Origin: an uncultured Thermoleophilia bacterium
GTDB taxonomy: Bacteria > Actinomycetota > Thermoleophilia > UBA2241
Assembly: GCA_963735345.1 (NCBI GenBank)
Contig: CAVTKL010000013.1
Coordinates: 321,130-385,129 of the forward strand
Length of the DNA: 64,000 nt
Reading direction: 5' to 3'
Each line of letters opens with the position of its first letter. Positions within the stretch are counted from its first letter, which is position 1. This document shows, one piece after another, positions 13,877-59,646 of the stretch. Made by a program: the position numbers and the translations under genes. The notes under the pieces are model-generated. The model was not told the origin of the DNA, did no database searches, and saw only the letters and a program-made list of their open reading frames with translations.

Positions 13877-14296
13877 TTGCGACGACGGCTGAAGCGCAGC
13901 GGTAAGCAGTTCGTGAAGTTCGCCATCGTGGGCGGGGTCGGCACGGTCGTGAACCTCGTCGTGCTCAAGCTGACCTTGACCATCTGGAGCCAGGTCGGCG
14001 CCGAGCCGTCGCTCGCCGTGGAGATCATGGCCAGCGGTCTCGCCTTTCTCGTCGCCGTAGGCAGCAACTACATGCTCAATCGCTGGTGGACCTTCCGCTC
14101 GACGGGGCCGGTCCACCTCGAGTTCGGCAAGTTCCTCACGGTGAGTCTCGCCGGCCTCTGCCTCAATACGCTCGCCTTCTCCCTCTTCCGCGCCCACCTG
14201 GGCTTCCCGGTGCTCCTCAGTCAGCTCCTGGCCATCGGCTGCGTGCTGCCGTTCAACTTCCTCGTCAACAAGTTCTGGAGCTTCCGGGCCGCCTGA
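13877..14296 (+). CDS. GtrA-family membrane protein (polysaccharide synthesis)
   Basis: KFAIVGGVGTVVNL N-terminal motif and four predicted TM helices. Stop overlaps the downstream start (TGATG). Confidence 0.75.
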   Translation: MRRRLKRSGKQFVKFAIVGGVGTVVNLVVLKLTLTIWSQVGAEPSLAVEIMASGLAFLVAVGSNYMLNRWWTFRSTGPVHLEFGKFLTVSLAGLCLNTLAFSLFRAHLGFPVLLSQLLAIGCVLPFNFLVNKFWSFRAA

Positions 14297-15573
14297 TGGA
14301 TGCCCTCACCGGCGGCGAACGCCATCGCGTGAGCGTCCTGCCGGCGGTACTGCTGAGCACCGGCCTCACGCTTCTCGTGCTCGCGGTGCTGCTCCCCAAC
14401 CTCTGGTACGGGCTGCACGACATCAGCGACATCCCCGTCTACCAGGGCTATGCCGAGAGGATCGCCCTCGGCGAGGCGCCCTTCACCGGCGACTTCCGGA
14501 TCGAGTATCCGCCGCTGGCCGTCCCTCTCTTCCGGCTCCCCGGCCACGTCGGCAGCCTCAGCGCCTACACCACGTGGTTCAGCATCTCGATGGGCGTCCT
14601 CACGGTGCTCACCGCCGCCCTCACGACCCTCGTCGCCTGCCGCCTGTGGCCCCGCGGCGGTCGCGCCTACACGGCGGCGGTGCTCTTCCCCGTCGGCGTG
14701 GCCCTCACGGGGGCGATCATCGTGAACCGCTATGACGTCGCGGTCGCGCTGGTCGTCGCGGCGCTGCTCGCCTGCCTCGTCCAGCGCTGGTACGTCTTCG
14801 CAGCTCTCGTCCTCGGCGTGGGCTTCGCGCTCAAGATCACGCCGGCCGCGATCCTGCCCCTCGTGCTGATCCTCGCCGGCCCCCCGAGACGCTGGCTGTG
14901 GCCGATCGTCGCGTTCTCGCTCGCCGCGCTGGCGCCCTTCGTCCAATACCTCGTCGCGGCGCCGGGGGGTATCTGGTACGTGTTCCACTACCACATGGCA
15001 CGACCGCTGCAGATCGAGAGCGTCCTTGGCACGCCGATGCTTCTGGGTCAGCTACTTGGCGCGAACTGGGCCAGATACGGATCCAGCTACGGATCGCACA
15101 GTCTCGTGGCTCCAGGCGCGCACCTCGCCGCCACGGCCTCCGGCGGACTCACCCTGCTGGCCGTGGTGGGTGTGTACCTGCTGGTATGGCGACGCCGCGC
15201 ACGACTCCTCCAGGTCCCTCAGGAGCAGATCCTGGCCGTACTCGCGCTGATCCTCGCGCTGATGACCTTCAGCAAGGTCCTCTCGCCGCAGTACATGATC
15301 TGGCTGCTGCCGGTCTGGGCGCTGGTGGGCGCCGGCGACCGTGTCCTCGGCGTCCTGGGGGGCCTCGTGATCCTGCTCACCCAGGTCGAGTTCCCCGTGC
15401 TGTACTGGCGCCTGCTCAGCATGGATCCCGCGACGCTGGCCATCGTCATCACGCGCAATTCCCTGCTCGTAGCCTTCTTCGCCGTCGTAGTGTGGCGACT
15501 GTGGCGGTTGCCGGGGGACGAAGCGCCTCGCGCAATCGTCCACACGTCACAGGCCGTTCAACCGCCCGGCTGA
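14296..15573 (+). CDS. Polytopic membrane glycosyltransferase, GT87/DUF2029-like (GT-C fold)
   Basis: About 12 hydrophobic helices with Arg/Trp-rich loops. Translationally coupled to gtrA via ATGA. Confidence 0.6.
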   Translation: MDALTGGERHRVSVLPAVLLSTGLTLLVLAVLLPNLWYGLHDISDIPVYQGYAERIALGEAPFTGDFRIEYPPLAVPLFRLPGHVGSLSAYTTWFSISMGVLTVLTAALTTLVACRLWPRGGRAYTAAVLFPVGVALTGAIIVNRYDVAVALVVAALLACLVQRWYVFAALVLGVGFALKITPAAILPLVLILAGPPRRWLWPIVAFSLAALAPFVQYLVAAPGGIWYVFHYHMARPLQIESVLGTPMLLGQLLGANWARYGSSYGSHSLVAPGAHLAATASGGLTLLAVVGVYLLVWRRRARLLQVPQEQILAVLALILALMTFSKVLSPQYMIWLLPVWALVGAGDRVLGVLGGLVILLTQVEFPVLYWRLLSMDPATLAIVITRNSLLVAFFAVVVWRLWRLPGDEAPRAIVHTSQAVQPPG

Positions 15574-15641
15574 CCGCTTTCGGCGCGGCATCTGCTGCCC
15601 GGAGCCTCCCCAGTCCGGCCTTGCAGTGTCGACGCCGGCCC

Positions 15642-17363
15642 TCAGGAATCGCGGCGGCTGACGGAGCTCAACGGCTTCGGCGCCTGCGCCACTGGAGCAT
15701 CCCTGCCTGCGGAATAGTAGCCATAGTACCCGCCGACCGGAGCCTCTCCGATCACGATGAAACCAAGCTTCCGGCAAGGCAGCTTGGCGAACTGCTCGTG
15801 AGCTCGCTGCAGCATCGGGCGCCGTACCTGTTCGGGGTTGACGACGAATGCGAGCGCTTCGACCTTCGGGGCCAAAGCAGCCGTGTCACCCACCGCCAGC
15901 ATGGCCGGAGCATCGATCAGCACCAGATCAGCCGATGCGGAGAGCTCGTTGATGATCTCGCCGAACCGGCGCGACGCCACGATCTCGCCCGGATTGGGCG
16001 GGACCAGGCCACTGGTCAGCAGCCGCAAGATGGGCGCTTCCCCGGTCTCATCGGGCCAGACCCACTCGTCAAGACCTGGGGCCGCTGCTGGCTGCCCAGT
16101 GACCGTGTGCAACTGCTTGGCGTTCTTGCCGTTTGATCCGCTCGCCCTCACCGACGCGCCCATGAGAACGCTGCCGCCTCGCGTACGGCTCGGATCCAGC
16201 ACGACCGGTATGACCGCCTTGCTCAGGTCGACGCGGCGCGCGACGACCTGAGAGACCCCGAGGACGTTAGGGGTGCCGAAATAGGCATGCACTCGAGGGC
16301 TGCGCAGGTCCGCGTCGACGAGGACGACGCGCTTGCCCGCCAATGCCATCGAGACGGCGAGGTTACAGATCGTGACGCTCTTGCCCTCCCCCTGGATCGA
16401 ACTGGTGATCATGAGACTACTGATATCGCCATCGATCCCCATGAAGTCCAGGTTGCTGCGCAAGAGCCGAAACGCCTCTGCGTTGACGCCCGATGAGTCG
16501 GTCAGCGTCGGCAGCACATCGACCCGCTTGCCCTTGCGCGGCAGAAGCGGGACATGCCCCAGGATCGGGAGACCGAGCATCTGAGCGATCTGCTCGTCCC
16601 CGTGCACTCGCGTATCGAACTGCTCGAGCAGGAAGGCGAGCCCGACACCCAGCACCGCGCCGACTACGAGCGCGATGAGAAGGCTGCGAAACTTGTCTGG
16701 CGAGAACGGCTCGGACGGCACCCCTGCAGTCGCGATGACCTCGAAGCCGCCGTTGATGCTCGCCTCGAGCAGTTCGAGGTCCTGGAGTCGTTGAGCCAGC
16801 GCTCGATAATCGGAGCTGTCCTGCGCCTCAGCGCTCGTGAACGTCTCCATCCTGCTCTTGACCACCTCGATGGCGTCGGCGACCTGCGACTTGGCGCTCT
16901 CGCGGCGCCATTCCATGAACGACTGAGCGTAGGCATTGGCAGCGGCGGCGGCCGTCTCCGGATCAGCCGAGACCCCTTCGATGCCCACCACGCTCGAGTA
17001 GTAGTTGTTGGCTCCGGCCGTCAGCGAGGCGCTCACGCTGTACCCAGCAGCGAGCTCTTCCTCGCTCATCAGCTTCTCGGCATTCTGCCGGACTCTGGCG
17101 CCCGCGATGATCGTCGGGACGCTCTCGAGGACTGCCTGCTGGGAGCTCGCATCGATGTACGACTGCCCGAGGGGATTCTGGAAGTCGACCTGCTTGACGT
17201 AGAGCAGTTTGGCCGAAGACGAGTACATCGGCGTCCGCGTCCAGGTGTAGGCGGCCCCGATCAAGGTCACGAGCAGCGTGACGACCAGGATCAGCCATTT
17301 CCAGCGGGCCATGACCTCGACGTAGCCGCGCAGCGAGAGTCCGTCAGTGTGCTGTGTCGTCAT
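15642..17363 (-). CDS. wzc: Polysaccharide co-polymerase / BY-kinase (Wzc/CapAB-like tyrosine autokinase)
   Basis: N-terminal TM and Wzz-like periplasmic domain. Walker A SSIQGEGKS, second TM, C-terminal tyrosine cluster GGYYGYYSAG. Confidence 0.88.
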   Translation of the reverse strand: MTTQHTDGLSLRGYVEVMARWKWLILVVTLLVTLIGAAYTWTRTPMYSSSAKLLYVKQVDFQNPLGQSYIDASSQQAVLESVPTIIAGARVRQNAEKLMSEEELAAGYSVSASLTAGANNYYSSVVGIEGVSADPETAAAAANAYAQSFMEWRRESAKSQVADAIEVVKSRMETFTSAEAQDSSDYRALAQRLQDLELLEASINGGFEVIATAGVPSEPFSPDKFRSLLIALVVGAVLGVGLAFLLEQFDTRVHGDEQIAQMLGLPILGHVPLLPRKGKRVDVLPTLTDSSGVNAEAFRLLRSNLDFMGIDGDISSLMITSSIQGEGKSVTICNLAVSMALAGKRVVLVDADLRSPRVHAYFGTPNVLGVSQVVARRVDLSKAVIPVVLDPSRTRGGSVLMGASVRASGSNGKNAKQLHTVTGQPAAAPGLDEWVWPDETGEAPILRLLTSGLVPPNPGEIVASRRFGEIINELSASADLVLIDAPAMLAVGDTAALAPKVEALAFVVNPEQVRRPMLQRAHEQFAKLPCRKLGFIVIGEAPVGGYYGYYSAGRDAPVAQAPKPLSSVSRRDS

Positions 17364-17560: not shown

Positions 17561-18916
17561 TCAGGAGACTCCTCCACTCGACACGTCCTCATGGTGCGAT
17601 TCGCCGTCGCGCGTGCGGGTCGCGAGCAGGTCGCGATGGGGTTCCCCGGGTCTCGACCGTGCGACGATCTCCTCATAGATGGCGATCGTGCGCGCAGCGA
17701 TCTGGTCCGGGTCGTTGCGCGCCTGTGCGCTGCGGCGAGCGGCCGCGCCCAGCGCCGCAGCCTCCATCCGGTTCTCGAGCAGGCGCTGGACCGCCGCCGC
17801 CAGCGCATGCGGATCACCGCGCGACACCAGAAGCCCCTCGACGCCGTGCTTCAGCAACGTCGGGGTGCCACCCACATGGGTGGCCACAATGGGCGCGCCA
17901 CAGAGCATGGCCTCCACGAGGGCGTTCGGACTGTTGTCCACGTGCGATGGATAGACGAAGACATCGGCGGTCTCCAGTTCGGTCACGATCTCTTCAGCCC
18001 CAAGGCGCCCCAGCCACTCGATGTGGCCGTCGACCCCGAGGCGCCGCGCGCTTCTGCGGTAGAGCTTGTCGAGCTCAGAGTCCTCTTGGACACCGGCCAC
18101 GCGTACCCGGAGACCGGCAAGACCTCGACGCTGGAGGATCGCTGCGGCCTGGATGAGGCACTCGGTGCCCTTTCCCATGAGTGCGCTCGAGGTGCTGTAG
18201 AGCCGTAGGCCCCCGTGACTCCGAAGTGACCAGTCTCCGCCGTAGAACGGAGACCGCATGATCTCGTCGCAGTGACGGTACTCGGCGAGCGGATTGCACG
18301 CCTCCAGCATGGCGCGATCCCAATCCGTGCGCCCCATGAACCATCGCGCCCCCCGCATGATCTCCTCTTCACGCACCGCCTGCCGACGCAGCAAGAGGTA
18401 CCGGTGCACGACACCGCGTCCCTTGAGGAACTCCTTGCTCAACACCAGGTCGGCAACATCGCGCGGTGTACGCCCCGCGAAGTAGAGACGCTCGTACGCG
18501 TGCAGGATCCCCTGCAATGAGATGACGCACGGGACCTGCGGGACAGCACCCGCGAGCAGGCCGAATCCTCCCTCGGTGCCGTGCACATGGACGATATCGG
18601 GGCGCATCTCCATCACCAGGGCGCGCGCGGAGGCGAGCACCGCCGTAGGCGTCAACTGATGCCGCCACGCCCGCGCGATTCGACGAAGTCGCGACGTGGT
18701 CATCTCCAGCGGGACATTGACGTAGTGAATGCGCTCCCGTGAGAACGAGGCGTACGGCTCGACGCCGGGAGACGCGATGGCCAGATCCAGCTCCGTCCGG
18801 TCCCTCAGGGCGCCGGCGAGACCATCTACCCAAGCCTGCGGTCCAGGCCGGCGAGGCAGGCCGAGATGCTCTCGCACAGCCGACGGCTGGACCTCCGTGA
18901 ACCAGAGCACCCGCAT
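17561..18916 (-). CDS. Glycosyltransferase family 4 (GT-B)
   Basis: C-terminal GT4 core (EGLPNALVEAMLCGAPIV-like: PSHVDNSPNALVEAMLCGAPIVATHVGG). ATG at 18916 overlaps the upstream deacetylase stop. Confidence 0.8.
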   Translation of the reverse strand: MRVLWFTEVQPSAVREHLGLPRRPGPQAWVDGLAGALRDRTELDLAIASPGVEPYASFSRERIHYVNVPLEMTTSRLRRIARAWRHQLTPTAVLASARALVMEMRPDIVHVHGTEGGFGLLAGAVPQVPCVISLQGILHAYERLYFAGRTPRDVADLVLSKEFLKGRGVVHRYLLLRRQAVREEEIMRGARWFMGRTDWDRAMLEACNPLAEYRHCDEIMRSPFYGGDWSLRSHGGLRLYSTSSALMGKGTECLIQAAAILQRRGLAGLRVRVAGVQEDSELDKLYRRSARRLGVDGHIEWLGRLGAEEIVTELETADVFVYPSHVDNSPNALVEAMLCGAPIVATHVGGTPTLLKHGVEGLLVSRGDPHALAAAVQRLLENRMEAAALGAAARRSAQARNDPDQIAARTIAIYEEIVARSRPGEPHRDLLATRTRDGESHHEDVSSGGVS

Positions 18917-18917
18917 G

Positions 18918-20009
18918 TCAGATGCCGGCCCGTCTAGTCCCGGGACCTTGTCGCCGCGCGTCACCTGGTCGTCCGCTGAGCCAACTCCCCAAGCTTTGAG
19001 CGAATCGCTCCGCTCCCCAGTCGCGGACAAGGAATCGCGGCAAGCGGTAGGGGTCGGTCAACGACGATACCCTGTCCGGCCAGTTGGCGCAGGCGGCCAT
19101 GAACCCACAGTCGTGAGCCAAGGCGACACTGCTCTGCGTCAGATCCCCAGCGGCGCCGAAGGGATACGACAGCAGATCCACAGGGGCCCCGCTGAACTGC
19201 GCCAGCGACTCCTTCCCCCGCCACAGTTCGTTCCGCTGGTCCTCCGGCGTCAGCACGGAGAGCGGGGCATGCCATACGCCGTGGGCTCCGACCTCAATCA
19301 CGTCGCTGTCGGCCAACCGCCCGATCTCGTCCGGGCGAAGCCGCCGGCAGTCCTCCAGAGTATCCGGCGGCGCGCATTGCCTGGCGACTTGGCCGATGAC
19401 CCGGTCGCGCTCCATGGGGGGAGGGAGCGACACAGCCGTGCCAGCGTCCGGTAGGCGGCATGGCGCGGCGTAGGATCGTGCGCCTGCGTGACGTCCCACG
19501 AGGGCGTGGCCTCGGGCATCTGACGAACCATCGTCTCCCAGATCCCATGCGAACTCCCGCCGCCCTGTTGTCACCACCAGGCGCCTCGGCGCCGGCGAAG
19601 ACCGCAGCAGCAACGCCTCAAGATGGTCCCACCAGAATGGCTGTCCCGTCTCCAGCCCACCCGTCGTCACAAAGACGGTTGCCGGGACCCCCGCGTTGCG
19701 CAGGAGCGGCTCAGCCGCGTGCAAGTTGTCCGCATAACCATCGTCGAACGTGACGACCACCGCCCGATCAGGCAGACGGCCTACTGCGGCGCGACGCACG
19801 AGTTCGCGTAACGAGAGAGGGACGCCCAGATCCGCTATCACCTTGAGTTGCGCGTCGAATCGTTCGGGCGCGACACACAGGAGTTGAGGATCGATGGCGG
19901 GCTCGGCGACCCGATGGTAGGCGAGGATCACCGCCGACGGCCCGAGGCTCATGCCGGCAGCCCGGGCTCGCCTGACGATCGCTCTCGCCGCACTCTTCGG
20001 ACGCATCAC
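18918..20009 (-). CDS. Polysaccharide deacetylase (CE4/NodB)
   Basis: VVTFDDGYADN motif and VGAHGVWH His motif. Confidence 0.8.
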   Translation of the reverse strand: MMRPKSAARAIVRRARAAGMSLGPSAVILAYHRVAEPAIDPQLLCVAPERFDAQLKVIADLGVPLSLRELVRRAAVGRLPDRAVVVTFDDGYADNLHAAEPLLRNAGVPATVFVTTGGLETGQPFWWDHLEALLLRSSPAPRRLVVTTGRREFAWDLGDDGSSDARGHALVGRHAGARSYAAPCRLPDAGTAVSLPPPMERDRVIGQVARQCAPPDTLEDCRRLRPDEIGRLADSDVIEVGAHGVWHAPLSVLTPEDQRNELWRGKESLAQFSGAPVDLLSYPFGAAGDLTQSSVALAHDCGFMAACANWPDRVSSLTDPYRLPRFLVRDWGAERFAQSLGSWLSGRPGDARRQGPGTRRAGI

Positions 20010-20013: not shown

Positions 20014-21066
20014 TCACCTCACACGACCTGGCGCAGCGCCCCTCACCAGTCTTCGCGCCCATCGTCGGCCGCGCCGCATCCAGCGATCGCACGGTTCGCC
20101 CAGCTTCACGAGTGAGCGGCCGAGGCGGTACACAGGCGACCGCAGCAGGGCTTCGGCATCATCGACTGGCCTCATCTCCAACGCGGCACTGTGAGCCAGA
20201 TCGGACATCATGCTCACCACGGCGGCAGGGTGGGCGCCCTCGTACCGCTCGAGCCAACTCGGGTAGCGATAGACATTGTGCACCCTGTACGGCTTGCGAA
20301 GCGTCAGGTACGAGTCGGCGAACCAGCGCCGCTCGTTGACAAACCAGTCGCCGTGCAAGCCCCAGTTCGAATAGTACTCCACCTTGTCGCGCACCTGCGC
20401 CGGAAACAGCAGCGAGTAGTGGTGCATGTGGATGCCCCTGCGCGCCATCTCCGCGGCGTCCAGCCAGCAGACCGAGCGGGTGTCCCGGCCGCGATCGTCC
20501 AGCACGGTAGGGGGGCGATGACCCGCGTAGGAGTATCCAGGCCCCCACTTGAACAGCCTGTGGAAGTCCGCAGCCCCGCGGCGAAGATACCATCCGTCCG
20601 CCACGTAGGCCGGCCTCGCCCAATGGGTGATCGTGGGAAAGGTGACAGCCGTGACCTGCGGCTCGCGCGCGAGCCGTTCGACGACCGCTTGCATGTCGGT
20701 CGAGTGGTAGAACTCGTCGACGTCGACCTGCCACAGGTAGTCCCCCGTGGCACGCACCGCGTAGGCCCGGCTCTGCTCGTCCTTCTCCCCCGGCCAGAAC
20801 CCGTCCTCGTGACCTTCGTCCTCGGCGGTCACGATCACGAGTTTGCCCGCCGGATCCTCCTCGCGCGCGAAGCGGCGCAGTTCCTCCAGTGTGCCGTCCC
20901 GGGAGTGCCCGTCGGGAGATGCGATCGCCGCGGCGCCCGGGGCGGCGCCCTCGACGACGATGATCTGGCCAGCGAACGGATAGAGCGCCCGCACGTTGTA
21001 CGTGACGAACGGCATCCCGTTCAGGACGATCATGCCAAAGGTGATGTTCGGACCCAAACGACTCAT
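20014..21066 (-). CDS. Glycosyltransferase (GT2-like / GT-A fold)
   Basis: N-terminal GMIVLNGMPFV and QIIVVEGAA regions, acidic DVDEF motif. ATGA overlap with the downstream-reading AsnB-like gene. Confidence 0.6.
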   Translation of the reverse strand: MSRLGPNITFGMIVLNGMPFVTYNVRALYPFAGQIIVVEGAAPGAAAIASPDGHSRDGTLEELRRFAREEDPAGKLVIVTAEDEGHEDGFWPGEKDEQSRAYAVRATGDYLWQVDVDEFYHSTDMQAVVERLAREPQVTAVTFPTITHWARPAYVADGWYLRRGAADFHRLFKWGPGYSYAGHRPPTVLDDRGRDTRSVCWLDAAEMARRGIHMHHYSLLFPAQVRDKVEYYSNWGLHGDWFVNERRWFADSYLTLRKPYRVHNVYRYPSWLERYEGAHPAAVVSMMSDLAHSAALEMRPVDDAEALLRSPVYRLGRSLVKLGEPCDRWMRRGRRWARRLVRGAAPGRVR

Positions 21067-22509: not shown

Positions 22510-22568
22510 GCGGCTCCTCTCTGGTCACGGGCAACGCGAGCGCCCGCTCCGCGCGCCGCCGGCATGCC

Positions 22569-47014: not shown

Positions 47015-47635
47015 ATGACGTTCCCTGACACCAGGTTCGCCGACGCTGGTGACTACGCAGACGCCTACTTCGAGCACATTCGCGAGGCCGCGGCCTCTGT
47101 CGACGGAGCCAAGCTTCAAGCGGCGGCCGTCATCCTCACACAGGTCCACCGTCACGGCGGCATGGTCTACTCCTGCGGTAATGGAGGGTCAGCGGCCATC
47201 GCCAACCACCTGGTCTGCGACCACTGCAAGCTGGTGCGCACCGACACGGACCTTACACCGCGCATCTACTCGCTCAGCTCCACCATCGAGCTCATCACCG
47301 CCATCGGCAACGACCTGTCGTACGACGAGGTGTTCGTGTACCAGCTGAAAGCGCTTGCCAAGCCCGGCGACGCACTGATCACGATCAGTTCCTCCGGTGA
47401 CTCCGAGAACGTGGTGCGTGCCTGCGGCTGGGCCAAGGAGTACGGCCTCCCCGTGATTGCGATGACGGGCTTCTCCGGTGGCCGTTCGGCGCACCTGGCG
47501 GACGTGAACCTGCACGTCGAGGCCGACAACTACGGTGTCATCGAGGACGTGCACCAGTCGCTGATGCACATCCTTGCCCAATACATCCGGCAAGCGCACA
47601 TGGACGAGGCGCTCGTCGAGAGACGTACGTTCTGA
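47015..47635 (+). CDS. SIS-domain phosphoheptose isomerase (GmhA-like)
   Basis: GNGGSAAIANHL and ISSSGDSENV motifs match GmhA. SD AAGGAGG. Confidence 0.75.
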   Translation: MTFPDTRFADAGDYADAYFEHIREAAASVDGAKLQAAAVILTQVHRHGGMVYSCGNGGSAAIANHLVCDHCKLVRTDTDLTPRIYSLSSTIELITAIGNDLSYDEVFVYQLKALAKPGDALITISSSGDSENVVRACGWAKEYGLPVIAMTGFSGGRSAHLADVNLHVEADNYGVIEDVHQSLMHILAQYIRQAHMDEALVERRTF

Positions 47636-51966: not shown

Positions 51967-53351
51967 CCGTCTGCGCGGTTCCTACGTCAACTCGCCGCCC
52001 TGGCTCCAGTCGACGGGAGGGCGCGCGCTCTCGGTGGTTCCTCCTGCCATCCTCTACGGGACGGCCTTCCGCGAACTGCGGGCTGACATCGAGCGCAGCC
52101 GCCACGATGCCGCGTTCGTCGACGAGCGCGTTCGCGCGTCGCTGCGCACGCTGTTGACGCGCGCCAGCGCGACCGCATTCTATGGCCCATTCGCTCTCCC
52201 GGATCGATCTGGAATCGCCCAGCGTCGCGGGCCTCGCGACACTGCCGATCCTGACGCGAGACGCGGTGAGAGCACAGACGGAACGCATGCTCACGGTCCC
52301 CAGGTCAGGACTGGACGAACGTCATACCAGCGGCACGTCGCACGCCCAACTCACTGTCTTCCTGGACAGAGACAGGTCAGTGCGGGAATGGGCCTTCATC
52401 ACGAACGTCTGGGGCAGGAGCGGATACCGCCTGGGCGACCGGCGCGCCTTTCTGCGGCGGGGCGAAGGAGGCCTGCCCGGAGACTGGACGTGGGAGCCAG
52501 GCACCAGAGAGTTGCGACTGACACCGTTCAGGATGATCCCGCCGGTCATGGACGACTATCTGAGCCTCATGTCTCACTACAGGATCGCCTACGTCCACGG
52601 CTACCCCTCCGCAATCACCCTCTTGGCGGCGCATGCCCGCAGGACGGGATGGGCGCCCTCACCGCCTCTGAAGGGTGTATTGCCCATCTCGGAGTCCCTC
52701 CTGCCGCACCAGCGCGAGATCATCCGGGAGGGCTTCGGGCCGGTCCGCATCCAGCCCTTCTACGGACTCACGGAGAAGGTCGCCCTGGCGGGCGAGATCG
52801 GCGACCGCCCCGACGAGTACGAGTTCGAGCCGCTCTACGGCATCACCGAGATCGTCGACGCCAGTGGCGAGCCCGTCGAGCCCGGGCAGCGCGGCAGGCT
52901 CATCGGCACTGGCTTCATCTCGATGGGCATGCCGCTCATCCGCTACGACACGGGTGATCTCGCCACCCTGGTCGATGCGCCTTCGGCGGAGAACTGCTGG
53001 CGTCTGCGAGCCAGGAACATCTCCTCGTGCTATGCGCAGGAGTATGTCGTGACCAACGAACGGGGCCTCGTCTCGGGGCTCTCCGCCCGTCCGCACGATG
53101 ACCGCGTCAAGGACTTCCAGATCGTCCAGCGGGAAGCCGGGCACATCACGCTGCGCATCGTCCCCGAGGAGGGAGTTGGCCTCGACAGACTGGCCTCCAT
53201 TCCCGAGAAGACGCGCGCCGAGTTCGATGATCTCGTATCGGTCGACATGGAGATCGTCGACGCGATCCCGCTCACAGCGGGCGGGAAGAAGCGCTACGTG
53301 GAGCAGCATCTCGACCTTTCCCAGTACGGGGGTGTCGATGCTCCGGAATAG
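51953..53351 (+). CDS. CapK / phenylacetate-CoA-ligase-like adenylate-forming enzyme; one frameshift near 52195
   Basis: N-terminal 80 aa are in the 51893 frame, and the rest is in the 52182 frame with AMP-binding-like motifs (TSGTSH, YGLTEK). Confidence 0.6.
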
Positions 53352-55317
53352 TCTGGCCGCCCATCCCGCAGTGCGCCGCGTCGCGTGGCGCACACGGCGG
53401 TTGCAGAGCATGGCGCCCGAGGAGATCGTGTGGCGCCTGCGCACGCGCGCGCTGCTCGAGATCCTGCGTCGGCGGGGAGACTGGCCCGGGCCACGCTTCG
53501 TCGCGCGCCCGGGTCGCTCGCCCTATCGAATGCCCGCGCTGGGCGAACTCGGCGAACACAGCTCCGTGATCCAGCAGGCCGAGCGCCTGCTCGATGGACA
53601 GCTCACCGCCTTGGACCAGTCGTTCTGCCTGGACAACGTCGACTGGCACCGTGACCCGCAGACCGGCGTCACGGCCCCCTTGAGTTTTGGCCCACTCATC
53701 GACTACCGCGACCCGAAGACCGTCGGCAACGTACGCAACATCTGGGAGCTCAGCCGTCATCAGTACCTGACGATCGCCGCGCTCGCCTTCGCCCTCACGC
53801 GCGACGATCGGTTCGCCCTGTTCGTGCGCCGTCAGCTCGAGTCGTGGCTCGCACAGAACCCGTTCGCCCTCGGGGCGAACTGGGCGAGCCCACTCGAACT
53901 GGGGCTGCGTCTCATCTCCTGGGTCTGGATCGCCCGCTTCCTGGAGGGCAGCCCGCACGGTGAGGCGCTGTTCGGAGCGGGAGGCCTGATGTGGCGTGCG
54001 GTCTACCAACACCAGTGGATGATCGCCCAACTGCGCTCGACCGGTTCGTCCGCAAACAACCACCTCATCGGCGAGATGGCGGGTCTGCTGATCTCGACGC
54101 TCGAGTGGCCGGTGTTCCCCGAGTCTCCGTCTTGGGCGCAGAGCGCACAGGCAAGCCTCAGCGCCGAGAGCGAACGCCAGTATTACCCCTCAGGAGTGAA
54201 CCGCGAACAGGCCTTCGGCTACCAGCTCTTCGCCACGGAGTTGCTGATTCTGGCCGGGATCGAGGCCCAGCGCGCGAAGCGCCCCTTCGGACCGGACTAT
54301 CGTACACGCCTGCTCAGAGCCTCAGATGCCGCCTTGGGGCAGGTCGGCGCTGGGGGGATCCTTCCGAGGTACGGCGACGCGGACGACGGGATGGCATTCG
54401 GGCTACCCGGCGGGGGCGACCAGGTCCTGGGCCGCATCGCCATAGTCGCTTCTCGATGGCTCAGGCGCGAAGGCGACCCGCCTCGGGCATCGCTTGACCA
54501 GCAGCTGGCCGCCCGCTTGCTGCTCTCAGGCCTGCCCTCCGAAGGGCCTGACGCGGCGCTTCCCGACCGTCCATCGCCTCTCGGCAGCCGAGCGTTCCCA
54601 GATGCCGGCCTCTTCGTCATGACCTCTCGTGAGGGAGACGAGGAGGTCTTCTGCCTCGCAGACGCCGGCGAACTGGGTTACCTGAGCATCGCCGCCCACG
54701 GGCACGCCGATGCCCTCGCCTTCACTCTCGCCGTCGGCGACGAGCAGATCGTCGTCGACCCCGGCACCTACACGTATCATCTCGACCCACAGGCGCGCGC
54801 GTATTTCCGCGGCACGCGCGCGCACAACACGATCACGCTCGACGGCCAGGACCAGTCCGTCGCAGCCGGCCCGTTCCTGTGGACGCGTAGAGCGCAGGCG
54901 GCGATGCAGGAATGGCGCGTGCACGAACGGGGCGCCCTCCTCAAAGCCAGCCACGATGGCTACCGACGGCTGGCCGATCCGGTCATCCACCACCGTACCC
55001 TGGCCCTGGAGGGGGGAGTGCTGACGATCGATGATGAGCTCGCCGGTGGCGACGTCCACGACGTGGAGTGGCGCCTGCACCTCGGGCCTCAATGCGCCGC
55101 ACGAATCCAGGCCGACGAATGCCAGATCTGGGGAGGGCGTCACCGCCTGACCCTTCAGCTCGACAAAGCCCTTCGCTGGGACCTGCTCGTGGGGGCTTCG
55201 CAAGGAGGTTGGTACTCATGCCATTTCAATCAGCGACAGAAGTCCGTGACCGTGGTCGGCAGCGGTCGTCTCGCGCTGCCGGTGACCCTTCAGCACGTCT
55301 TGCGGGTGTCTAGGTGA
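53338..55317 (+). CDS. Heparinase II/III-like (alginate-lyase-like) protein
   Basis: 660 aa with the Hepar_II_III N-terminal alpha-toroid and C-terminal beta-sandwich architecture. Overlaps the upstream stop by 14 nt. Confidence 0.7.
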   Translation: MLRNSLAAHPAVRRVAWRTRRLQSMAPEEIVWRLRTRALLEILRRRGDWPGPRFVARPGRSPYRMPALGELGEHSSVIQQAERLLDGQLTALDQSFCLDNVDWHRDPQTGVTAPLSFGPLIDYRDPKTVGNVRNIWELSRHQYLTIAALAFALTRDDRFALFVRRQLESWLAQNPFALGANWASPLELGLRLISWVWIARFLEGSPHGEALFGAGGLMWRAVYQHQWMIAQLRSTGSSANNHLIGEMAGLLISTLEWPVFPESPSWAQSAQASLSAESERQYYPSGVNREQAFGYQLFATELLILAGIEAQRAKRPFGPDYRTRLLRASDAALGQVGAGGILPRYGDADDGMAFGLPGGGDQVLGRIAIVASRWLRREGDPPRASLDQQLAARLLLSGLPSEGPDAALPDRPSPLGSRAFPDAGLFVMTSREGDEEVFCLADAGELGYLSIAAHGHADALAFTLAVGDEQIVVDPGTYTYHLDPQARAYFRGTRAHNTITLDGQDQSVAAGPFLWTRRAQAAMQEWRVHERGALLKASHDGYRRLADPVIHHRTLALEGGVLTIDDELAGGDVHDVEWRLHLGPQCAARIQADECQIWGGRHRLTLQLDKALRWDLLVGASQGGWYSCHFNQRQKSVTVVGSGRLALPVTLQHVLRVSR

Positions 55318-56615
55318 ACATCAGCATCTTCGGATTGGGCTACGTCGGCGTGGTCACCGCAGCGTGCCTGGCCCGGGACGGACATGAGATCGTTGGCGTC
55401 GACGTCAACCCCGAGAAGGTCGCAGCGATCGCCGCCGGCCGATCCCCCATCGTCGAGCCCGGGCTGGCGGAGTTGTTGCGCGCAGGGGTCGCGGCCGGAC
55501 GCATTCGCGCCACCGTGGACGTGAAGCAGGCGATCGACGAGACCGAGGTCTCGCTGATCAGCGTGGGCACCCCCACTTCAGACAGAGGCGCCCCGAACCT
55601 CGGTCACGTCCGAAAGGTATCCGCCGAGATCGGCGCGGCTGTGGCGGGCAAGGCCAAGCCGCACGTCATCATCCTGCGCAGCACCGTACCGCCCGGGACC
55701 CTGAAAGAGTGCGCTGAGATCGTCGGTGAATGTGCCGCGGGCGTTCCCGTCGGGTTCGCCTTCAACCCGGAGTTCCTCCGAGAAGGATCCGCGATCGCCG
55801 ACTTTGACCACCCCAGCTACACGGTCATCGGCACGGAGAGCCGTGCCGCGGAGGATGCAGTCCGAGGCGTCTACGCCGGCGTCGACGCGCCGTTCCTGGT
55901 CGTGCCGCCGGAGGTGTCTGAGATGGTCAAGTACGTCGCCAACTGCTGGCACGCGACCAAGATCGGCTTCGCCAACGAGGTGGGAAGGGCCGCGAAGGCC
56001 TTCGGCGTTGACGGGCGTGTCGTCATGGGCATCATCGCCAAGGACACCAAACTGAACGTCTCTTCTGCCTACATGAAGCCCGGATTCGCGTACGGAGGCT
56101 CCTGTCTGCCCAAGGACGTCAGGGCCCTGTTGTACTACGCGCGGGAGATGGGCGTGGAACTGCCGATGCTCACCGCGCTTCCTCACTCCAACCAGCTGCA
56201 GATCGACGCCGCGCTCCATCTCGTTCTGGCAACCAGGGCTTCACGCGTCGCGGTGTTCGGCTTGGCCTTCAAGTCCGAGACCGACGACCTCCGCGAAAGC
56301 CCGGCGGTCCCGCTCGTGAAGGCGCTCCTCGGCGAAGGCTGCGAGATCCGCATCTACGCTCCCGACGTCAACAAGGCGCGGCTCATGGGCACCAACCTTG
56401 ACTACATTCGGGAGAACATCCCGCATTTCGAGCATTTACTGGTGGACGATCCGCAGGACTCGGTCGCTTGGGCCGAGACGGTCGTCGTGACCCATCCGCA
56501 GGCGCAGTTCAGCAAGGCCCTCGAGGCGGCGCCGGCCGGCAAGCGCATCGTCGATCTGGCGGGCGTGTTCGCTGAGAGACCACAACGATTCGAGTACGAT
56601 GGCATCGCCTGGTAG
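55314..56615 (+). CDS. algD: GDP-mannose 6-dehydrogenase (AlgD-like nucleotide-sugar dehydrogenase)
   Basis: N-terminus MNISIFGLGYVGVV...GVDV closely matches AlgD. Catalytic GGSCLPKD. GTGA overlap with the upstream gene. Confidence 0.8.
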   Translation: MNISIFGLGYVGVVTAACLARDGHEIVGVDVNPEKVAAIAAGRSPIVEPGLAELLRAGVAAGRIRATVDVKQAIDETEVSLISVGTPTSDRGAPNLGHVRKVSAEIGAAVAGKAKPHVIILRSTVPPGTLKECAEIVGECAAGVPVGFAFNPEFLREGSAIADFDHPSYTVIGTESRAAEDAVRGVYAGVDAPFLVVPPEVSEMVKYVANCWHATKIGFANEVGRAAKAFGVDGRVVMGIIAKDTKLNVSSAYMKPGFAYGGSCLPKDVRALLYYAREMGVELPMLTALPHSNQLQIDAALHLVLATRASRVAVFGLAFKSETDDLRESPAVPLVKALLGEGCEIRIYAPDVNKARLMGTNLDYIRENIPHFEHLLVDDPQDSVAWAETVVVTHPQAQFSKALEAAPAGKRIVDLAGVFAERPQRFEYDGIAW

Positions 56616-57846
56616 CGTCCTTATCGTCGTCGAGAACCTCCCCGTTCCCTTCGATCGCAGGGTCTGGATGGAGGCGACGACCCTCGCAGCCGCCGGATAC
56701 GACGTCAGCGTCATCTGCCCCAAGGGCAAGGGGTATTCGCGCGCCCACGAAGTCATCGACGGCGTGTCGGTGTACCGTCACGACTTGACCGTCGAAGGGC
56801 ACTCGGCGCGCACGTACCTGCAGGAGTACGCACAGGCGCTATGGCGCGAGGCCTCGCTCGCTCGCCGCATCTATCGCGCCGACCCGTTCGATGTGCTTCA
56901 CGTCTGCAACCCTCCTGACCTCATGTTCCTCTTCGCGCTCTGGTTCCGGATCCGTCATGGGGTCAGGATCATCTTCGATCACCACGACATCAACCCGGAG
57001 CTTTACGAAGCAAAGTATGGGAAGCGAGACGCCTTCTATCGCGTCTTGCGCCTCGCCGAACGACTCACATTCCTCACGGCCCACGTCGTCATCACGACCG
57101 GCGAGAGCTACCGTGAGATCGCGCTGCATCGCGGCCACAAGAGGCCCGAGGATGTGTTCATCGTCCGCAGCGGCCCTGACATGGCCAAGTTCCGCCCTGT
57201 GCAGCCGGTGCCCGCCTACAAGCACGGCCGCCGCTTCCTCGTTGGATACGTTGGCGTCATGGGACCTCAGGAGGGGATCGACTACCTCTTGCGGGCGGTG
57301 CGCATCATCGTCCATGAGCGCCGGCGGACCGACATCTCCTTCGTACTCATCGGCTCGGGCCCGGCAGTCGACGATCTCAAGACGCTTTGTGCCGACCTGG
57401 ACGTGTCGGGCTACGTGGAGTTCACCGGTCGAGTACCCGACGAGGAGCTTGTCGCGCGCCTGTCGACCTGCGACCTGTGCGTGAACCCCGACCCGCACAA
57501 CCCGTTCAATGACGCGTCCGTCATGAACAAGATCCTGGAGTACATGGCCCTCGCGAGACCGGTCGTGCAGTTCGATCTCACTGAGGGGCGCAGGTCAGCG
57601 GGCGCAGCGAGCACGTACGCCCGCCGCAACGACCAGCACGACCTCGCGGAGAAGATCCTCGAGTTGCTCGCCGACGACGCGCGGCGCCGACAGATGGGCG
57701 AGGAGGGGTATCGGCGCATGCGCGATGAGCTGGAGTGGAAGCACCAGGTGCCGAAGCTCCTGCGTGCCTACGGCAGAGCGCTGGCGAAGCCTCCAAGGGG
57801 AGCCGCGCGGCGAATTGGCTCATTCGCGGATCGAATGCGGCGCTGA
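56599..57846 (+). CDS. Glycosyltransferase family 4 (WcaI-like)
   Basis: GT4 motif NKILEYMALARPVV. Overlaps the algD-like end by 17 nt. Confidence 0.8.
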   Translation: MASPGSVLIVVENLPVPFDRRVWMEATTLAAAGYDVSVICPKGKGYSRAHEVIDGVSVYRHDLTVEGHSARTYLQEYAQALWREASLARRIYRADPFDVLHVCNPPDLMFLFALWFRIRHGVRIIFDHHDINPELYEAKYGKRDAFYRVLRLAERLTFLTAHVVITTGESYREIALHRGHKRPEDVFIVRSGPDMAKFRPVQPVPAYKHGRRFLVGYVGVMGPQEGIDYLLRAVRIIVHERRRTDISFVLIGSGPAVDDLKTLCADLDVSGYVEFTGRVPDEELVARLSTCDLCVNPDPHNPFNDASVMNKILEYMALARPVVQFDLTEGRRSAGAASTYARRNDQHDLAEKILELLADDARRRQMGEEGYRRMRDELEWKHQVPKLLRAYGRALAKPPRGAARRIGSFADRMRR

Positions 57847-58080
57847 CACGAACCGTGTTGGGTTCGCCGGCAGGATGCTACTCATGTCGATGCCGCCCCG
57901 TTTAGAGGCTCCGAGCACGTTCGCGACACCGCTGCACAGTCAGGCGCACGCGCTCAGAGTGATCGTCCGATCCTGCCGCCGCCGACTGCATCCCCGATAC
58001 CAACGTGCGCGAAGTCGACGTAGTCACTGACCATTCGCGCCCGGCGCCCTATGGCCCGGTCCCCGACGCCCGAGGGACGC

Positions 58081-59646
58081 TCAGTACGCCCCGCGCTTCG
58101 CAAGCACGGCCGGCACCGTCTGCAGAAGGAGCTTGATGTCCCAGCTCAGACTCCAGCCGGTGACGTACATGTAGTCCAGCTTGACCATCTCGTCGAAGGG
58201 GATGTCGCTGCGCCCCAGGACCTGCCACAGCCCGGTGATGCCCGGCGTGATGTCGAGACGCTTCTGCGTCCAGCCATGCACCTGCCGAGCCTCCTCCACC
58301 CACAGCGGCCGGGGACCCACCAAGCTCATGTCGCCCTTTATCACATTGATGATCTGTGGCAGCTCGTCGATGCTCCAGCGTCGAATGAACTCCCCGACCC
58401 GCGTCACCCTGGGATCGCGCTTCATCTTGAACATCGGGCCCGAGTACTCGTTCTGCTCGCTGAGCTCCTCGCGAAGCTCATCGGCGCCGAGCCGCATGGA
58501 GCGGAACTTGAGGATCATGAAGGGCCTGCCGCCGCGTCCCATCCGCTCCTGACGGAAGAAGACGGGGCCCTTGGAGTCGAGTTTGATGACGATCGCCATG
58601 ACGACGAGCACGGGCAGGAAGAACAAGAAGATGATGCCGCCGACGAAGAGGTCGAACGCGCGCTTGACCACCATGTTGAAGCGGCTGAGCTCGACGTGAC
58701 CGACGTCGAGCAGCGGGATGCCTTCGACGTCGTCGACGAGCGCGCGCGAACTGACCACTTCGAAGAGGCGCGGCACGATGTTGACCCGTACCGCGGAGTC
58801 GGCACAGGTGCGCACGATCCGCAGAAAGTCGTCGTGCCGAGCTCGCGAGAAGGCGACGATCACACGGTCCACGCGCTGCTCAAGGACGATGCGCTTCAGG
58901 TCATGGAAGGCGCCGACCATGGGCACGGGCGGTCCCCCAGTACCGTTGCGGCGCGGCTCTCCATCGTCGAGAAACCCCACCAGGGTGATGCGGTACTCGG
59001 GGTGTTTGCTGATCTTCTCCGCGATCATGTGACCGACTTCGCCGGCTCCGATGATGAGCACGCGCTCGCGCAGCGCCGTGGTCGACCAGATCGTGTGCCG
59101 GCTGATCGTTCGGCAGATGGGGACCAGGACGATGGCGATCAGCCAGAAGACGATGAGGACGCCGATGGGGGCCTGGCTGCCTTGGATGGACACGAGCGCG
59201 ATGAGCAGCAGCCAGCTGGCGGCCGTCAACGCGGTCGGGCCACTCAGCGTCTCCGTGAGGTCGGCGCCGCCGATGCTGCGACCGGGGGCCCGGTAGAGGC
59301 CAAAGGCCCAGAGCGCCGCGAGCCAGTACGGAACGAGAGCGACGAACATGAACACACTGCCGCCCTCGATCTGGGAGAACGGCGAAACCAGCCGTTCGAC
59401 GACGGGCACCCCGACGAGAGCATCAGCCACCCACACGGCGAGCGACGACGCGACCAGTATGCCAAGGGTGTCGGCGCCGACCGTCGCCGCGATGCGAAGC
59501 TTGGCCGGTCGTTTGGTCAGGGTGTGCTCGAGAGCGGCAGCTTGGACCGCGAGCTCCCCGTAGGTGTCCACGCTTCTGAGTGTTCCGTCCGACATGTACC
59601 CAGCATCGGCAACATCGGCGCTGAACAATAGAGGGTCTCTCCCCAT
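58081..59646 (-). CDS. wbaP: Undecaprenyl-phosphate hexose-1-phosphate transferase (WbaP/CpsE-like polyprenyl glycosylphosphotransferase)
   Basis: N-terminal TM block, CoA-binding-like domain and C-terminal bacterial sugar-transferase domain (KFRSM, DELPQ, PGITGLWQ). Start is uncertain (59646 or 59595). Confidence 0.85.
   Translation of the reverse strand: MGRDPLLFSADVADAGYMSDGTLRSVDTYGELAVQAAALEHTLTKRPAKLRIAATVGADTLGILVASSLAVWVADALVGVPVVERLVSPFSQIEGGSVFMFVALVPYWLAALWAFGLYRAPGRSIGGADLTETLSGPTALTAASWLLLIALVSIQGSQAPIGVLIVFWLIAIVLVPICRTISRHTIWSTTALRERVLIIGAGEVGHMIAEKISKHPEYRITLVGFLDDGEPRRNGTGGPPVPMVGAFHDLKRIVLEQRVDRVIVAFSRARHDDFLRIVRTCADSAVRVNIVPRLFEVVSSRALVDDVEGIPLLDVGHVELSRFNMVVKRAFDLFVGGIIFLFFLPVLVVMAIVIKLDSKGPVFFRQERMGRGGRPFMILKFRSMRLGADELREELSEQNEYSGPMFKMKRDPRVTRVGEFIRRWSIDELPQIINVIKGDMSLVGPRPLWVEEARQVHGWTQKRLDITPGITGLWQVLGRSDIPFDEMVKLDYMYVTGWSLSWDIKLLLQTVPAVLAKRGAY

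Follow-up and report, generated by a model that had tools for sequence, protein, structure and literature searches.

Introduction

Several well-described systems for building bacterial surface glycans have counterparts in the locus reported here, which lies in a stretch of 64,000 nucleotides from an uncultured Thermoleophilia bacterium (contig CAVTKL010000013.1 of assembly GCA_963735345.1); we call this stretch the window, and all coordinates refer to it. The first of these systems are the Wzy-dependent capsule and exopolysaccharide (EPS) loci, such as those for the E. coli group 1 capsule and colanic acid and the Gram-positive cps loci. The window shares with them a large initiating transferase, a polysaccharide co-polymerase fused to a tyrosine kinase with a tyrosine cluster, a Wzy/ligase-like protein with many transmembrane (TM) segments, several GT4 glycosyltransferases, a UDP-sugar dehydrogenase, deacetylases, and the arrangement of conserved ends around a variable middle. 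Unlike those loci, however, it has no Wzx, no Wza-type channel (the lineage is actinobacterial), no CpsA/LCP and no CpsB phosphatase; its initiator and kinase stand at opposite ends, 42 kb apart; and its Wzy-like gene reads as frameshifted, with a product that gives no direct match to a hidden Markov model (HMM).

A second comparison is with the ABC exporters of wall teichoic acid (TagGH) and of mycobacterial galactan (Wzm/Wzt, Rv3783/Rv3781), in which permease and ATPase are likewise encoded side by side, and to which the window proteins show their best NCBIfam similarity. As in terminus-recognising Wzt proteins, the window ATPase has a C-terminal extension, and an operon of cytoplasmic GT2 and GT4 enzymes lies next to it. 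Yet the scores stay under the equivalog cutoffs, and the window holds no TagO/WecA, no CDP-glycerol or CDP-ribitol genes and no recognisable Wzt_C. Third, the window has a counterpart of GtrABC of phages and Shigella, and of mycobacterial Rv3789 with its GT-C enzymes (GT87, PimE-like), which depend on polyprenyl-phosphate sugars: a GtrA protein of four TM segments is encoded directly upstream of a GT-C-like transferase of 10-11 TM segments, and this pair is kept throughout the lineage. It differs from those systems in that no GtrB-type GT2 adjoins it, its GT87 match is sub-threshold, and it belongs to the chromosomal core instead of being phage-borne or serotype-converting.

Two further systems resemble parts of the interior. 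A cassette at 26113-29763 has four roles in common with the GDP-heptose pathway (GmhA-HddA-GmhB-HddC), namely an SIS isomerase, a kinase, a HAD-like phosphatase and a nucleotidyltransferase. In contrast to that pathway, the isomerase of the cassette is KpsF/KdsD-like and not GmhA, and the kinase, of APH and not GHMP fold, forms one protein with the nucleotidyltransferase; the HddC profile gives no more than 20 bits, and the phosphatase matches HAD weakly. Orthology thus failed the test, and only the reaction logic is common. The proteobacterial EPS loci associated with PEP-CTERM and exosortase (TIGR03013-TIGR03019), finally, contain the same kinds of EPS sugar transferase, chain-length determinant/tyrosine kinase and asparagine-synthase-like amidotransferase, and likewise a FemAB-like GNAT, a CapK/acyl-CoA-ligase-like enzyme and a divergent polysaccharide deacetylase. 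The window differs in having neither an exosortase nor PEP-CTERM proteins, in not reaching the TIGR equivalogs, and in its phylum.

Every element of the locus is of a known family or pathway type, and conserved anchors around a recombining interior are the arrangement familiar from loci for capsules, O-antigens and wall polymers. What is new is the lineage, the particular combination of genes, and two uncharacterised sets of enzymes.

Results

Position and borders of the variable region

Our reading of the region 15642-59787, to which we assign a probability of about 0.72, is that it is a genuine, recombining super-locus for cell-envelope glycans at a conserved chromosomal site, holding parts of at least two assembly lines. 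Gene families, synteny and differences between strains were observed directly; the split into two polymers, their substrates and their chemistry are inferred.

Because the window is 66% G+C, raw lists of open reading frames (ORFs) are full of spurious frames. Genes were called by third-position G+C (GC3) and then checked against Pfam and NCBIfam, and starts and frames were refined against intact orthologs on two conspecific contigs: strain A (ENA ERZ25039462 contig_27073) and strain B (ENA ERZ25039459 contig_45637). These contigs had been found by exact look-up of the protein labelled SIS2, followed by the cluster members of Wzc and of the glycosyltransferase labelled GT4b. To assess synteny, every protein of the window was compared by tblastn with 80 loci, each of them surrounding a relative of isoleucyl-tRNA synthetase (IleRS).

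The first-pass annotation of this DNA, made without database searches, had drawn one accessory region of 46 kb from position 13877. Its first two genes encode a small GtrA-family membrane protein with four TM segments (13913-14296, plus strand; PF04138, 84.7 bits against a cutoff of 26.1) and a GT87-like membrane glycosyltransferase of GT-C type (14296-15573, plus strand; GT87, 21.1 bits, under the cutoff of 25), whose 10-11 predicted TM segments are compatible with GT-C topology. The order glnA...ileS-HAD-GtrA-GT87 is kept in the nearest 9-14 genomes, the pair adjoins ileS-HAD in 12 related loci, and orthologs of the GT-C protein, 48-73% identical, stand beside GtrA in loci L001-L010 and L014. 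Codon usage was compared with the flanks as well. GtrA (alone, GC3 = 0.94) and GT87 together have a GC3 of 0.90 and a codon adaptation index (CAI) of 0.71, matching the flanks (0.90 and about 0.71-0.72), whereas every module from Wzc to WbaP has a GC3 of 0.79-0.83 and a CAI of 0.53-0.59, and it is precisely between 15573 and 15642 that the values change. The G+C content of the variable part, 0.655 versus 0.68, is a small shift and uniform across modules. The shift in GC3 and codon adaptation from Wzc to WbaP is mild and fits low expression too, and it does not extend to the GtrA/GT-C genes, which are flank-like.

The GtrA/GT-C pair is lineage-core synteny of Thermoleophilia and not accessory: the earlier recognition of such a pair holds for GtrA and, by a sub-threshold match, for its partner, while the accessory status assigned to it does not. 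Together the two proteins would probably use a polyprenyl-phosphate sugar for extracytoplasmic glycosylation, in the manner of GtrABC or of mycobacterial Rv3789 with GT-C enzymes. The variable region is 15642-59787 (44 kb), bounded by Wzc and WbaP. Both of these recur at the same site in relatives, with orthologs that are 32-61% identical and with one or both often present.

The same site in related genera

The comparison of gene content with relatives supports an expectation of the first-pass annotation in one respect, since other genera do differ past GT87, and corrects it in another, since a start at 13877 takes in two core genes. Past GT87, gene content varies among the relatives and sets them apart from the window, and yet they carry glycan genes. 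In L014 Wzc follows GT87 directly; L010 has an epimerase, a GT4, a DUF6625 protein and Wzc; L007 has a Gfo-type oxidoreductase (GFO), WbaP, a DegT aminotransferase and Wzc; and L001 has DegT and a Gfo-like gene. In L009, from the metagenome-assembled genome (MAG) UBA6103, positions 2992-8178 hold gmd (GDP-mannose 4,6-dehydratase), an fcl-like epimerase/reductase and WbaP, followed by the unrelated YmdB and Mrp/Nuo genes; this WbaP is 61% identical to that of the window and lies 2.4 kb from GT87. The L009 locus is minimal, at about 4.3 kb from GT87 to non-glycan genes.

The site appears to be an old, continuously occupied glycan locus with lineage-specific content: glycan genes of some kind are present there in all relatives for which enough sequence is available. 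No empty site, with the flanks adjoining and the locus absent, was found among the conspecific contigs or the more distant relatives. We found no tRNA gene and no Rfam match in the window, no integrase or transposase domain in any window ORF scanned with Pfam, and no flanking repeat at the borders.

As a separate observation, L009 shows how small a glycan locus can get in this lineage.

Collinearity and mosaicism within the species

Tiled loci give 42 kb of sequence for strain A and 51 kb for strain B, and the comparison with these two conspecific strains ends at 57.6 kb. Collinearity with the window extends over 15531-57620 in strain A, with 95.9% identity, and over 5640-57626 in strain B, with 97-98%; in strain B there are two structural differences. 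The first is a 1.69-kb tandem duplication in strain B of 21004-22690, a unit comprising the asnB-like gene, the last wzy codons and, from the gene that follows, the first 21 codons. The second is the absence from strain B of 26066-29478, a 3.4-kb cassette, in place of which there is about 0.8 kb with no credible gene; the ORF 'B_219' in this replacement stretch was rejected as a gene, being an Arg-rich junk translation with no matches.

In 1-kb bins, sharp divergence hot spots stand out against a background of 97-99%. One spans 21-26 kb, covering the asnB-like gene, the wzy-like gene and the first of two beta-helix genes, with the wzy region at 87-93% nucleotide identity versus 98% nearby. Another, at 30-32 kb, covers the C-terminal half of wzt together with wzm. 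The sharpest, at 48-49 kb, falls on the FemAB-like GNAT, where identity is 76% to strain A and 93% to strain B in surroundings of about 98%; this looks like allele replacement by recombination. Two more, at 50-51 kb and at 55-57.6 kb (the dehydrogenase and a GT4), are seen in strain A only. The locus is thus conserved in the species and yet mosaic at the scale of genes. The suspicion that it is mosaic and strain-variable is borne out by the hot spots, the presence or absence of the cassette and the tandem duplication among three conspecific assemblies. Diversification would proceed by recombination at hot spots, gain and loss of the cassette, and duplication, and not by insertion of one mobile island.

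To this extent the locus gives a first annotated picture of the organisation of surface-glycan genes in an uncultured, soil-associated Thermoleophilia lineage: a fixed site anchored by ileS-HAD-gtrA-GT-C, with lineage-specific content and with fine-scale mosaicism inside one species. Such mosaicism is what pressure from phages or predation, or niche selection, on surface chemistry would be expected to leave. Because the mosaicism fits selection of this kind, the locus would be a sensible marker for typing strains in metagenomes.

Two details of the strain contigs may be added. At the junction of the strain B duplication (L083, 4622-4867) there is a chimeric ORF of 81 codons, made of the first 21 codons of the GT2-like gene and the last 52 codons of the wzy-like gene; the duplication is either real or an artefact of assembly. 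The contig of strain A (L086; 1.05 Mb) ends 111 bp beyond Wzc (about 15531). This is exactly where GtrA/GT-C gives way to the variable region, and it suggests a break of the assembly graph owing to strain variation.

Candidate assembly lines

The gene content probably specifies two or more polymers, judging from the families present and their adjacency. The first line would make a repeat-unit polymer initiated by the WbaP-class transferase and extended by GT4 enzymes, with uronic acid from the nucleoside-diphosphate (NDP)-sugar dehydrogenase; its tailoring would fall to the amidotransferase, the adenylate-forming and ATP-grasp enzymes, the FemAB-like enzyme and the deacetylases, and its polymerisation to the Wzy-like protein under the control of Wzc. 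Its genes lie at both ends of the region: WbaP, two GT4, the dehydrogenase, the heparinase II/III-like and the CapK-like genes at the right, and Wzc, a GT4, a CE4, the GT2-like, the asnB-like and the Wzy-like genes at the left.

The first gene at the left end (15642-17363, minus strand) encodes a Wzc-type polysaccharide co-polymerase fused to a tyrosine autokinase. The protein has Wzz (residues 9-83), GNVR (186-245) and P-loop domains, TM segments at 24-42 and 228-246, and a TIGR01007 score of 120.1 bits against a cutoff of 108.05. The bacterial tyrosine kinase named in the first-pass annotation is confirmed by these matches, by the Walker A motif GEGKS, by the A'/B motifs VVLVDADLR and LVLIDAP, and by the C-terminal tyrosine cluster GGYYGYYS at residues 553-560. 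Next come a GT4 glycosyltransferase (17561-18961, minus; Glycos_transf_1, 99 bits), 99.6% identical to its strain B ortholog; a canonical CE4 polysaccharide deacetylase (18918-20009, minus; PF01522, 70 bits) with weak PgaB/IcaB similarity; and a soluble 350-aa protein (20014-21066, minus), weakly GT2-like (Glycos_transf_2, E=0.0025, under the cutoff) and 98% identical to its strain B ortholog, for which a single-sequence search of the PDB gave no match. An asparagine-synthase-like PP-loop amidotransferase, asnB-like, follows at 21066-22509 (minus) in five frame pieces; its intact 480-aa strain B ortholog matches Asn_synthase at 26 bits, and the window translation has the motif SGGYDS.

The Wzy/O-antigen-ligase-like membrane protein (22499-23912, minus) reads in at least four frame pieces in the window. 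Its assignment draws on homologs of the strain B ortholog, of which about 20 in 111 contain PF04932 (Wzy_C) and several are named O-antigen ligase by JGI, and on the topology of that 468-aa ortholog, which has 10 hydrophobic segments, the eighth and ninth being separated by a large loop of about 75 residues. The polymerase proposed in the first-pass annotation is upheld to this degree by homologs and topology, and weakened by having no HMM match of its own and by its division over at least four frames.

At the right end stand a GT4 glycosyltransferase (50866-51966, plus; Glyco_trans_1_4, 117 bits); a CapK/PaaK-like adenylate-forming enzyme (51953-53351, plus), with CapK_C found on orthologs, weak AMP-binding matches and a frame break at 52190; and a heparinase II/III-like protein (53338-55317, plus; Hepar_II_III_C, 172 bits; Hepar_II_III_N, 54 bits), which has neither a signal peptide nor a hydrophobic N-terminus and would thus be cytoplasmic. 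Our literature search found no direct support for a link between heparinase II/III-like proteins and uronate C5-epimerases, and the epimerase idea is not used here. A nucleotide-sugar 6-dehydrogenase, for uronic-acid supply (55314-56615, plus), has all three UDPG_MGDP_dh domains and 377 bits for TIGR03026 against a cutoff of 190, and is followed by a further GT4 (56599-57846, plus). The last gene of the variable region (58081-59787, minus) encodes a large WbaP/WcaJ-class polyprenyl-phosphate hexose-1-phosphate transferase with TM segments, Bac_transf at 219 bits, CoA_binding_3 at 56 bits, and TIGR03025 at 405.8 against a cutoff of 295.55. Neither equivalog is reached, however (TIGR03022, WbaP, 339 versus 403; TIGR03023, WcaJ, 350 versus 411). 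On its profile scores, membership in the WbaP class is clear, and the test for galactose-1-phosphate specificity failed. The dehydrogenase and the class of the initiating transferase had both been read correctly in the first pass; the scans further confirm the heparinase II/III-like protein and two beta-helix proteins.

The second line would build a polymer in the cytoplasm by a GT2-GT4-(NodB-like)-GT4 operon and export it through a TagGH-like Wzm/Wzt pair. The Wzt/TagH-type ATPase (29800-31092, minus; ABC_tran, PF00005, 80 bits) has its N-terminal half at 30247-31092 (minus) in the window and its C-terminal half in three extra frames, the 429-aa strain B ortholog mapping in four pieces. It resembles TagH and galactan Wzt at 200-207 bits (NCBIfam), under the equivalog cutoffs. 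In the 429-aa orthologs the C-terminus is extended by about 180 residues; this stretch, too, is a divergence hot spot, and no Wzt_C or other domain match was found for it. The Wzm/TagG-type ABC-2 permease (31096-31959, minus; ABC2_membrane, PF01061, 59 bits) is encoded 3 nt from wzt; its main frame is 31096-31788 (minus), the N-terminus lies in another frame beyond one break near 31926, and it shows similarity to galactan Wzm. An ABC exporter, as first proposed, is thus confirmed by matches to both of its components.

Divergent from wzm runs the operon itself: a clear GT2 (32383-33237, plus; Glycos_transf_2, 77 bits), whose protein is identical in strain B; a GT4 (33234-34478, plus; Glyco_trans_1_4, 78 bits); a divergent NodB/CE4-like putative deacetylase (34475-35473, plus); and another GT4 (35479-36585, plus; Glycos_transf_1, 93 bits). 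Exporter and operon are kept as a unit, together with the cassette, on an independent JGI contig.

The putative deacetylase gave no direct match in Pfam, NCBIfam or a single-sequence PDB search. Its family of 1911 representatives has invariant D8, E10, D12 and H75; Polysacc_deac_1 (PF01522) is matched by 13 of the 70 relatives tested; and the four best hits of the family profile in the PDB are all NodB/CE4 enzymes, at marginal E=0.008-0.05. We count it as a putative remote CE4-like enzyme. Single-sequence AlphaFold models of this protein and of the first cassette protein (26113-27099) had mean confidence scores (pLDDT) of 33-34 and were unusable.

In all, the region holds five GT4 and one clear GT2, with one further GT2-like gene that is weak, which partly sustains an earlier count of at least seven. 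Of three CE4 deacetylases placed inside the interval, two are there, one canonical and one remote; the third lies outside, at 7643-9043. The idea of two export routes fares likewise: parts of both are present (ABC-2 on one hand, WbaP, Wzy-like and Wzc on the other), with several modification cassettes, and the Wzy route is without Wzx in the window.

Several points weigh against our reading. No ORF matched Polysacc_synt/MOP and no unassigned protein of 12-14 TM segments was found in the 64 kb, so that a MOP-family Wzx flippase is missing there; nor does the window contain a WecA/TagO-type initiator or an LCP ligase. Neither route is complete in the window, and the split into two polymers is drawn from gene adjacency only. 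The Wzy-like protein has no HMM match, whether as window fragments or as the intact strain B ortholog. The aldolase, the dehydrogenases and Ldh_2 at 40-49 kb could serve small-molecule metabolism and not a glycan. Finally, the frame breaks in the window, at least 17, would inactivate parts of both routes if they were real.

The cassette and the 40-49 kb enzyme block

The strain-variable cassette begins with a soluble 328-aa protein (26113-27099, minus) without a Pfam, NCBIfam or PDB match, whose gene is present in strain A and the JGI contig and absent from strain B. It continues with a candidate small phosphatase of HAD-like type with a DVDG motif (27250-27684, minus; weak HAD matches, E about 0.02-0.03), also absent from strain B; an SIS-domain sugar-phosphate isomerase, KpsF/KdsD-like and without CBS domains (27659-28267, minus; SIS 56 bits, KpsF/KdsD 84-90 bits, under equivalog cutoffs); and a fusion of an N-terminal nucleotidyltransferase to a C-terminal kinase of APH fold (28258-29763, minus; NTP_transf_3 and APH). 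More than 2800 homologs across phyla have the architecture of this last protein, one of them additionally fused to SIS, and a literature search found no direct support for a characterised nucleotidyltransferase-kinase fusion of this type. In some strains the four genes would feed the second line by turning a ketose phosphate into an NDP-sugar. The substrate is possibly a pentose, a hexose or a heptose; alternatively, the cassette may serve LicC/LicA-like activation of an amino alcohol.

The block at 40-49 kb begins with an ATP-grasp ligase (40237-41307, plus; partial match of 163 bits to NCBIfam cyanophycin synthetase, over the ATP-grasp domain), a 2-hydroxyacid dehydrogenase of the Ldh_2 family (41404-42501, plus; PF02615, 377 bits, under all equivalog cutoffs) and a second ATP-grasp ligase of 522 aa (42376-43944, minus; weak CPSase_L_D2 and PRK12767 matches). 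These three form a recurrent trio, relatives of which occur in EPS-like metagenome loci. A second set does not travel with the trio. It consists of a Gfo/Idh/MocA oxidoreductase (44191-45216, plus; three Pfam domains), a D-2-hydroxyacid dehydrogenase resembling PGDH and glyoxylate reductase (45314-46198, plus; 2-Hacid_dh_C, 186 bits), an HpcH/HpaI class II pyruvate aldolase (46209-47003, plus; PF03328, 119 bits; HpaI/GarL 144-167 bits, under cutoffs), a GmhA-like SIS isomerase (47015-47635, plus; SIS_2 82 bits; gmhA 120 bits against a cutoff of 209) and a FemAB-like GNAT of the Acetyltransf_6 family (47770-48790, plus; PF13480, 56-63 bits), which maps in two frames around one frame break. To judge from these families, the block could plausibly make an acidic sugar tailored with an amino acid or hydroxyacid.

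It might instead be a small-molecule or peptide operon, biosynthetic or catabolic, that merely lies inside a glycan locus. None of its families is glycan-specific and all score under their equivalog cutoffs; moreover, organic-acid metabolism is where HpaI/GarL aldolases and enzymes of the glyoxylate-reductase-like and Ldh_2 kinds are typically found. Set against this, relatives of the second ATP-grasp ligase (46-56% identity) adjoin genes for GT4, Wzc and WbaP-like proteins, and a relative of the first ligase, in metagenomes. EPS loci often contain FemAB-like GNATs and GmhA-like isomerases, and the block is embedded among glycan genes and conserved with them in three strains. We consider a small-molecule operon rather unlikely, though it deserves to be kept in view.

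A bolder proposal joins the two sets of enzymes. The cassette would be a widespread, uncharacterised route from ketose phosphate to NDP-aldose (for example NDP-D-arabinose or NDP-heptose), non-orthologous to GmhA/HddA/GmhB/HddC and supplying a strain-specific residue of the ABC-exported polymer, while the neighbouring block of HpcH aldolase, GmhA-like SIS, dehydrogenases and the ATP-grasp pair with Ldh_2 would make a new acidic sugar bearing an amino acid or hydroxyacid. We put this forward as a speculation of low probability. Enzymology could reasonably be directed at the kinase/nucleotidyltransferase cassette and at the ATP-grasp/aldolase block; nothing in the locus departs from the known principles by which glycan loci are organised.

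One feature of the block concerns its layout alone. The Ldh_2 gene (plus) and the second ATP-grasp gene (minus) are convergent, and their 3' ends overlap by 126 nt (42376-42501); this does not look like an error, because both conspecific contigs show the same overlap.

Frame breaks

Compared with intact orthologs, the window has at least 17 changes of frame, all within 21.0-52.2 kb: four in the asnB-like gene, at least four in the wzy-like gene, three in wzt, two in the second beta-helix gene, and one each in wzm, the GNAT, the first beta-helix gene and the CapK-like gene. In the flanking housekeeping genes (20 kb) none was found. Either these breaks are artefacts, or much of the locus is decaying, in which case all of the genes just named would be true pseudogenes, with the Wzy route and the ABC exporter dead in this genome. 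Decay would account for the confinement of the breaks to 21-52 kb and is in keeping with the unusual divergence of the wzy region. On the other hand, relative to both strains the window has 17 unique +1 insertions, at non-homopolymer sites, versus two single-base deletions, and spontaneous indels in bacteria are usually deletion-biased. The other two assemblies, of the same ENA series, break different genes: in strain A those labelled GT4, NTP/kinase, GT4c, HepII and UGDH, the excess in UGDH again being extra bases, and in strain B the 2-hydroxyacid dehydrogenase (2-HADH), HepII, ATP-grasp and SIS2. For genes that are broken in one assembly, another has an intact ortholog, 94-99% identical.

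Since the pattern is insertion-biased, assembly-specific and concentrated where the strains differ, we regard the breaks, with good though not full confidence, as consensus errors of long-read metagenome assemblies in strain-heterogeneous DNA, and we hold decay to be unlikely. There is a practical warning in this: insertion-type frame breaks concentrate in the locus in these assemblies, and automated annotation will consequently under-call or split its genes.

A related observation concerns the canonical CE4 gene at 18918-20009. It has an extra base at 19501 relative to both strains and a second indel nearby, while the frame stays open; the protein is 90% identical to that of strain B, and its 90% cluster holds neither conspecific contig's protein. 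A short out-of-frame stretch between compensating indels is the likely explanation.

One polymer or several

All of the modules could also cooperate on one complex glycoconjugate, for instance a heteropolymer with side chains that is attached to the wall, or a glycan attached to protein; the two export systems would then not be separate routes. There is only one initiating transferase in the window, of the WbaP class, and no Wzx, and the whole block is inherited together in three strains; moreover, where ABC-2 exporters (TagGH, Wzm/Wzt) act on a lipid-linked polymer, the genes that initiate it may be located elsewhere. Nevertheless, Wzm/Wzt and the GT2-GT4-x-GT4 operon are self-contained on the independent JGI contig, there are relatives with Wzc and WbaP at the site and without any ABC exporter, and a Wzy-like polymerase together with an ABC exporter would be unusual for one polymer. 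A single product seems to us quite improbable, and two or more polymers remain our preferred reading.

Lateral acquisition of the locus as one accessory island, inserted as a unit between housekeeping genes, is very improbable, and with it falls the proposal of a single 46-kb insertion: the lower GC3 and codon adaptation from Wzc to WbaP, the content past GT87 that other genera do not keep and the mere 4.3 kb or so at this point in L009 would suit it, but the GtrA/GT-C pair is core, no tRNA, integrase, transposase, other mobility gene or flanking repeat was found, all three conspecific assemblies carry the locus collinearly, relatives with enough sequence all have glycan genes at the site, often Wzc and/or WbaP, and the shift in composition is mild, uniform and as expected of weakly expressed genes.

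Secreted proteins and flanking genes

Three secreted proteins are encoded among the glycan genes and may cut, trim or bind the polymers. The first beta-helix protein (24415-26063, plus; Beta_helix, 26.5 bits) has a signal peptide, a coiled coil and one frame break near 25611. The second (48968-50706, plus; Pect-lyase_RHGA_epim, 57 bits; Beta_helix, 39 bits) resembles pectate lyases and rhamnogalacturonases and has a signal segment and two frame breaks at its N-terminus. Between them, a secreted 1074-aa beta-propeller protein of BNR/YCF48-like type with Ig-like domains (36642-39863, minus; PSII_BNR, 170 bits; Big_13) has a hydrophobic N-terminal segment, and the homologs found, 35-49% identical, are named 'YCF48-related'.

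Both kinds of protein contain repeats at the nucleotide level. In the first beta-helix gene, 24970-25203 is a Pro/Thr-rich tandem repeat that forms the linker of the protein, with periods of 18-48 nt and 2.2 perfect copies of a 42-nt unit; it is a divergence hot spot, the 25-26 kb bin being 71% identical to strain B with 58 gap columns. In the BNR/YCF48-like gene, 38090-38560 has internal repeats of about 123 bp in two copies with a 74% match, and copies farther away give self-matches of 65-70% (blastn).

The left flank of the locus is housekeeping in character, with glnA, nadE, aspartate kinase, asd, thioredoxin reductase, thioredoxin, a CE4 deacetylase, a methyltransferase, ileS and a HAD hydrolase; to the right lie a ZIP transporter, a dihydroorotate-dehydrogenase-like gene and the C-terminal part of a pyruvate:ferredoxin oxidoreductase. 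The IleRS is 77-81% identical to its top matches among genome representatives, all of them uncultured Thermoleophilia MAGs. Since it reaches at most 81% with any representative, the organism is an uncultivated member of the Thermoleophilia without a same-species representative in the collection scanned.

The CE4 deacetylase of the left flank (7643-9043) is a canonical, secreted enzyme with Ig-like domains (PF01522, 97 bits), in the conserved flank and outside the interval first annotated. Together with a SAM methyltransferase it occupies 7643-9696, between thioredoxin and ileS. Among the related loci, orthologs of this CE4 occur in only four and those of the adjoining methyltransferase in 10, and there may be a second, small variable spot to the left of ileS.

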